Shown in pieces: positions 1 through 526 of a DNA stretch of 526 nt. A program made the translations under genes and the position numbers. This DNA comes from a phage. The notes below the pieces were generated by a model. The model was not told where the DNA came from. It did not search any database and saw only the letters and a list, made by a program, of their open reading frames with translations. Every line of letters starts with the position of its first letter. The first letter of the stretch is position 1. The stretch lies in sequence record AF039870.1. One strand, given 5' to 3'.

Positions 1-306
1 GTAAAGCGATGTGCCATCCCAATAGATGTATGCACAACCTTCAAAAAGTAGGTCAGTGACTACAAGTCTACGGAATGTGCTTATATCCATGAATGGATTA
101 GGTCGTACATTTAAGAGAGTGTCTAGAGTCTTTGTTTTGACGCCATTAGCGTACGTAACAATATTATATTTATCTCCGACAGTATAAGAACACTCCGCCG
201 CACTATCTATAACCATATTAGCAGTTCTATTGAGAATCTCAATTTTACTGTAGGCTTGTCCAGTGGTAAAAGGCTTACGGTTAGTGCGATGACTAACTGG
301 TTCCAT
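1..306 (-). CDS. Phage portal protein, HK97-family-like, N-terminal fragment (102 codons; start ATG at 306..304, 3' end runs off the window at position 1)
   Basis: Seen in sequence: the reverse complement of 1-306 is an uninterrupted frame that translates to MEPVSHRTNRKPFTTGQAYSKIEILNRTANMVIDSAAECSYTVGDKYNIVTYANGVKTKTLDTLLNVRPNPFMDISTFRRLVVTDLLFEGCAYIYWDGTSLY. Third codon positions are A/T-biased, as expected for a low-GC genome. Established knowledge (from memory, not a search): the block LLNVRPNPFMDISTFRRLVVTDLLFEGCAYIYWDG matches the conserved N-terminal motif of HK97-family portal proteins (L..RPNP.M..F.F+......LL..GNAY), and its position about 65-85 residues from the N-terminus is typical. 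The first in-frame ATG after the upstream in-frame TAA (367-369) is at 304-306. The start assignment is less certain than the identity (see findings). Confidence 0.78.
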   Translation of the reverse strand, partial: MEPVSHRTNRKPFTTGQAYSKIEILNRTANMVIDSAAECSYTVGDKYNIVTYANGVKTKTLDTLLNVRPNPFMDISTFRRLVVTDLLFEGCAYIYWDGTSLY

Positions 307-356
307 GTCTCTTANAATACGTTGACCCGGATTTAGCTTTTCAAGTAATCCATCTT

Positions 357-526
357 TTAAAACCCATTATAAGAACCTTGCGAATCCTGATTTTGTTTCA
401 GTCTTGACTTGTGTTCNTTTCTTGAGGATTCTGTATTTTGTCTTTCTGCTTTTGAACCCATGCTTTCTGTTTATTNGCAGNNAATNGTGGGCGGTTCTTT
501 CGGGGTAAAACTTATGTAGAAATTGG
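357..526 (-). CDS. 3' end of upstream ORF, reading frame unresolved; possibly the terminase large subunit C-terminus by conserved gene order (terL then portal)
   Basis: Seen in sequence: all three minus-strand frames show coding-like stretches here. One frame is open from the window edge to TAA at 367-369 (QFLHKFYPERTAHxxLxINRKHGFKSRKTKYRILKKxTQVKTETKSGFARFL*), unless the N at 417 is A on the + strand, giving TGA. A second ends at TAA 357-359 (...TESMGSKAERQNTESSRxEHKSRLKQNQDSQGSYNGF*) and has strongly A/T-biased third positions. A third ends at TGA 398-400 (...ANKQKAWVQKQKDKIQNPQE...). Five of the six Ns fall in this span, so indels are likely. Inference: in tailed-phage head modules the gene directly upstream of portal is usually the terminase large subunit; no terminase motif is visible in this short, basic C-terminal tail. 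Confidence 0.3.
376..379 (-). promoter_or_regulatory. Candidate Shine-Dalgarno (AAGG on the minus strand) 8 nt upstream of an alternative ATG at 367..365
   Basis: Seen in sequence: the minus strand reads caAGGttcttataATGggttttaaaagatgg. The AAGG with an 8-nt spacer is a better ribosome-binding context than anything in front of the ATG at 306..304. It is a short match and only meaningful if the alternative start is real. Confidence 0.25.

Follow-up and report, generated by a model that had tools for sequence, protein, structure and literature searches.

The window analysed here, a 526-nucleotide stretch of phage DNA (AF039870.1), contains parts of two genes, both on the minus strand. Most of it is taken up by the beginning of a portal gene corresponding to T5.152 of bacteriophage T5, which codes for the portal protein pb7, and the remainder matches the end of the gene immediately upstream, T5.153. 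A first-pass annotation had placed the N-terminal region of an HK97-family-like portal protein at 1-306 and had quoted a peptide block from it; the block is present on the minus strand as described. The features are as follows.

1..367, minus strand: 5' part of the portal gene T5.152 (pb7), codons 1-122 of 403, running off the window at base 1 (alignment to T5 and its annotation)
1..306, minus strand: the in-frame stretch annotated in the first pass, pb7 residues 21-122, all wing domain (identity to PDB 9ilp_A and 8hqo_D)
117..13, minus strand: the quoted block LLNVRPNPFMDISTFRRLVVTDLLFEGCAYIYWDG (translation of the reverse complement)
28..39, minus strand: G-C-A-Y, pb7 residues 110-113, with the Cys111 codon at 36..34 (alignment of 14 portals)
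94..105, minus strand: RPNP, pb7 residues 88-91 (the same alignment)
136..138, minus strand: codon of Lys77 (position read from the sequence; DNA contact from PMC11313276)
343, no strand: extra base relative to T5 (A on the plus strand), carried by 0 of 20 T5-like IMG/VR contigs
343, 414, 489 and 502: one-base insertions relative to T5 (base-by-base comparison)
315-526: apparent poor-quality tail of the read (comparison with T5 and with T5-like contigs)
367..526, minus strand: 3' end of T5.153, a nicking endonuclease with HNH-like motifs, last ~51 codons (T5 annotation and translation)

Other elements were also looked for. An Rfam scan of both strands with E values up to 1 gave no match, and no terminator was found in the window. 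The promoter scan returned 6 sigma-70-like sites against 1.4 expected from shuffled sequences, located at 137-318 on both strands and within the portal coding sequence. They were not accepted as functional because they sit in A+T-rich coding sequence, and their excess probably reflects this composition. Four plus-strand open reading frames (26-187, 256-336, 404-508, and 409-519) were dismissed as short and antisense to firmly identified genes.

Source and quality of the sequence

The top megablast match of the whole window was T5, with 96.8% identity over 526 bases. In the base-by-base comparison, positions 1-314 were 100% identical to positions 104981-105294 of the T5 genome (NC_005859), and every difference fell within 315-526, where there are 6 Ns, 4 one-base insertions, and 7 substitutions, increasing in density toward the end of the read. 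The changes at 343, 353, 414, 492, 504, 510, 519, and 520 were private to the window when it was compared with 18-20 T5-like contigs from IMG/VR. Changes that are private, clustered with the Ns, denser at the end, and absent from 1-314 argue for read errors, and by this pattern the window is a single-pass sequencing read whose quality decays past about position 314. Open reading frames called within 315-526 are unreliable.

These differences could also be real, in which case the window would represent a T5 variant with a +1 frameshift in the portal gene after codon 8 and a disrupted nickase gene as well. Taken literally, the sequence does have one base too many at 343, and at 353 G is replaced by T (Ser5Arg); if both changes were real, pb7 would have to start at Met21 or need a ribosomal frameshift. 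However, we consider such a variant very improbable. Its differences would be confined to the very part of the read that holds all 6 Ns, denser toward the end and with 1-314 clean, and the eight changes listed above occurred in 0 of the 18-20 T5-like contigs. The three further insertions (414, 489, and 502) would break the frame of the nickase gene. Moreover, the only IMG/VR contigs with the 18-mer spanning the insertion at 343 were three that are not T5-like, a number close to that expected by chance for a sequence of 18 bases.

Thus, the window is almost certainly DNA of bacteriophage T5, or of a Tequintavirus with the same sequence in this region, read in a single pass with decaying quality and carrying the end of T5.153 and the start of the pb7 gene, as judged from the sequence comparisons. 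The source cannot be assigned to strain T5 itself because other T5-like genomes match equally well; for example, the IMG/VR contig L036 equals T5 in closeness over bases 1-405. None of the evidence contradicts the assignment to T5, and the caveats are three minor ones: the strain, the Pfam score of the fragment, and the margin of pb7 in TIGR01537 (the latter two are given below). For practical use, the window can be labelled T5 (Tequintavirus) DNA.

The portal gene and its start

Downstream of a stop codon, the reverse complement of 1-525 encodes WVLKDGLLEKLNPGQRIXRD-MEPVSHRTNRKPFTTGQAYSKIEILNRTANMVIDSAAECSYTVGDKYNIVTYANGVKTKTLDTLLNVRPNPFMDISTFRRLVVTDLLFEGCAYIYWDGTSLY, a frame that stays open through base 1. 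In the T5 annotation, the portal CDS (T5.152, 403 residues) opens with MGFKSWITEKLNPGQRIIRD-MEPVSH..., and the DNA alignment to NC_005859 places its start, locus position 3366, at position 367 of the window. The portal ATG is therefore at 367..365, and the methionine at 306..304, from which the in-frame stretch seemed to begin, is Met21. As read, the window has MGFKRWIT* and LEKLNPGQRIXRDMEPVSH... in different frames, because the extra base at 343 puts portal codons 1-8 out of frame. The same base masks the real start, so that the reading frame seemingly begins at 306. By comparison with T5, the false start at 306 is put down to a read error at 343. The substitution at 353, which taken literally replaces Ser5 by Arg, is the other change that disturbs codons 1-8, and the window otherwise differs from the T5 pb7 gene solely by error-like changes in 315-526. 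The earlier assignment of 1-306 to the N-terminal region was thus correct as to the region, but its first methionine is not the start and the first 20 residues were missing from it. In the virion, pb7 does include residues before Met21, as its cryo-EM model starts at residue 11 (PMC11313276).

The identity of the protein follows from direct matches. A tblastn search of 50,697 phage records (2.3 Gb) showed that the 102 in-frame residues are 100% identical to pb7 residues 21-122 in many T5-like genomes (E = 5e-65 to 5e-66), in which the matched genes are annotated as portal protein. This was the search proposed in the first pass for checking the portal assignment, and all 102 of the 102 residues agreed with portal proteins. 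Consistent with this, phmmer against the PDB retrieved the pb7 structures 9ilp, 9imv, and 8hqo, with residues 21-122 again 100% identical (E = 5.9e-66). All in-frame residues are thus the same in the window, in T5 pb7 (YP_006980.1; PDB 9ilp and 9imv), and in its DT57C homologue (8hqo). The window also shares with the T5 pb7 gene its upstream neighbour and a TAATG stop/start overlap.

That the window instead comes from the portal gene of a prophage, or of another HK97-like phage outside the T5 group, is the least probable reading and barely worth entertaining: the first pass had spoken of a tailed phage or prophage, and the Pfam family does include many prophage portals, but all 439 records matched by megablast were T5-like phages with T5 the best, and protein matches of at least 60% identity were restricted to Demerecviridae, the next phages (Staphylococcus, Mycobacterium, Clostridium, and HK97) reaching 20-28%. 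Of the two origins named in the first pass, the phage stands and the prophage does not, T5 being virulent.

All of this has been published, from the gene and the protein to the atomic structure and the neighbouring genes, and nothing here is new in that respect. What the analysis adds is the exact identity of the sequence, the move of the start to 367, the recognition of the poor tail of the read, and a tested basis for the remark on Cys and Asn discussed below.

Two unannotated records, OR847562.1 and OR848653.1 ("Listeria phage LM 4-11-1" and "LM 4-14-1"; 2.4 and 4.4 kb), contain a stretch 100% identical to T5 pb7. They look like mislabelled or contaminated records, since a Listeria phage would hardly be expected to carry a portal of the T5 type.

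Family membership and the RPNP...GxAY block

The 102-residue fragment matched the Pfam family PF04860 (Phage_portal) with E = 5.6e-9, its residues 27-97 aligning to profile positions 5-73. Its score of 36.1 bits is 3 bits under the gathering score of 39.1 bits, which is to be expected of a fragment covering a quarter of the domain. Full-length pb7 scored 172.2 bits over profile positions 6-321 of 321, so that the profile search, which had likewise been proposed as a check, gave a clear answer for the whole protein. The fragment also matched PHROG 12 "portal protein" (E = 1e-14), as did full-length pb7 (E = 7.5e-72). Against the NCBIfam model TIGR01537 (portal_HK97, an equivalog), the fragment scored 17.4 bits and full-length pb7 112.1 bits. 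The cut-off of this model is 112.05 bits, and the margin of 0.05 bits puts T5 at the edge of this narrower family. Slightly more divergent portals of the T5 group probably fail TIGR01537 and pass PF04860 easily. By profile, T5 pb7 thus belongs to the family of HK97 gp3, PF04860, and TIGR01537. These matches, together with the identity to pb7, bear out the earlier naming of the protein as an HK97-family-like portal.

However, pb7 is distant from HK97 gp3, with only 22% identity over 312 residues in BLASTP (E = 8e-8). The alignment between them begins at the block quoted in the first pass, LDTLLNVRPNPFMD...FEGCAYIYWD in pb7 versus LARLLRYSPNQYMT...FYGNAYALVD in HK97 gp3. Similarly, tblastn alignments to distant portals from Staphylococcus, Mycobacterium, Clostridium, Moraxella, Bacteroides, and Streptococcus phages start at pb7 residues 76-88. 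In an alignment of 14 portals (six of the T5 group, HK97 gp3, and seven distant ones), Pro89 was invariant in all 14, and Asn90, Leu85, and Ala112 were at least 90% conserved. The (R/S)-P-N-x ... aromatic ... G-x-A-Y block of HK97-type portals is therefore present in pb7 and shared with them in its main features, with Pro89 invariant, Asn90 and Ala112 nearly so, and an aromatic residue after Ala112. The first pass had recognised it as a conserved motif, and rightly so. The RPNP...GxAY block is the most N-terminal stretch that is still recognisable across HK97-type portals.

The first pass had also pointed out GCAY in place of the more usual GNAY, and the alignment agrees: the x of GxAY is Asn in HK97 and in 5 of the 7 other distant portals (6 of 8 outside the T5 group), whereas pb7 has Cys. 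Within the T5 group, GCAY occurs in T5 and in a Klebsiella T5-like phage, GTAF in a Providencia phage, and GWAF in three Vibrio phages. By this distribution, the Cys is a feature of the T5 lineage and not an anomaly, at a position that is relaxed in Demerecviridae.

Two records seen among the portals deserve mention. In Gordonia phage DalanDe (ON755184.1), the annotated portal CDS has 2772 bases and codes for about 923 residues instead of the usual 400-430 or so; here, an HK97-type portal part is presumably fused to another part. In Aeromonas phage Akh-2 (MK318083.1, 105249-108503), the region matching portals is annotated as tiny hypothetical ORFs on both strands without a portal gene, which points to a frameshift in the assembly or to faulty gene calling.

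Role of the portal and its gene neighbourhood

The analysis itself established the identity of the sequence, its family, and its gene context, whereas the dodecamer, the domains, and the DNA contact are taken from published cryo-EM work. The pb7 dodecamer takes the place of one capsid penton (PMC11313276; PMC10713586), and its subunit consists of wing (residues 11-175 and 278-336), stem, clip, and crown domains (PMC11313276). The DT57C homologue (98% identity with pb7) has been the subject of its own cryo-EM study (PMC10713586). The dodecameric adaptor p144 and the hexameric terminator p142 lie under the portal (PMC11313276; PMC10713586), and Lys77 of the wing contacts the packaged DNA (PMC11313276). 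The 12 copies of pb7 form a ring-shaped channel through which the DNA enters the head and later leaves, with p144, p142, and the tail beneath it. The wing is the broad periphery of this ring on the capsid interior, and its initial portion, including both Lys77 and the RPNP...GxAY block, is made up of the residues encoded in the window.

In T5, the genes for the terminase small subunit, terminase large subunit, an endonuclease, T5.153, the portal, a decoration protein, the protease, and the major head protein follow one another on one strand. The module thus has the terminase (T5.156/155), the portal (T5.152), the protease (T5.150), and the major head protein (T5.149), with extra genes interspersed. 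This order supports the earlier placement of the sequence in a head-morphogenesis and packaging module. As in T5, the protease and major head protein genes of HK97 are located downstream of the portal gene. However, T5 differs from HK97 in having two nuclease genes between the terminase and the portal and a decoration protein gene between the portal and the protease. The terminase genes T5.155/T5.156 lie three genes upstream of the portal gene. In tailed phages, the portal is the docking site of the terminase during packaging, and by analogy we infer that the T5 portal would dock the T5.155/T5.156 terminase.

The upstream 160 bases of the window, 367-526, correspond to the last part of T5.153, which encodes the T5 nicking endonuclease, but three insertions (414, 489, and 502) and several Ns break its frame as read. 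The T5 RefSeq record lists T5.153 as "hypothetical", but annotations in several relatives name its counterpart as a nicking (site-specific) endonuclease, sciA. Its protein matches PDB 9qgv and 9qgx ("Nicking endonuclease") with E of about 1e-95, the sole differences being a single His changed to Gln or Ala. It contains the HNH-like motifs CxxC...HH...CxxHH and matches PHROG 8048, HNH endonuclease (E = 2.5e-7); a Pfam search of T5.153 returned no family. A relationship to HK97 gp74, a packaging-associated HNH protein, was considered and rejected, as the match was confined to LCxxHH and was not significant (E = 0.55). On sciA/sciB, the literature yielded a second-hand statement that ascribes T5 nicking to two genes of the late region (PMC3517423). 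The last base of the T5.153 stop codon (TAA, 369..367) is also the first base of the portal ATG (TAATG), and this overlap suggests that T5.153 and the portal gene are translated as a coupled pair.
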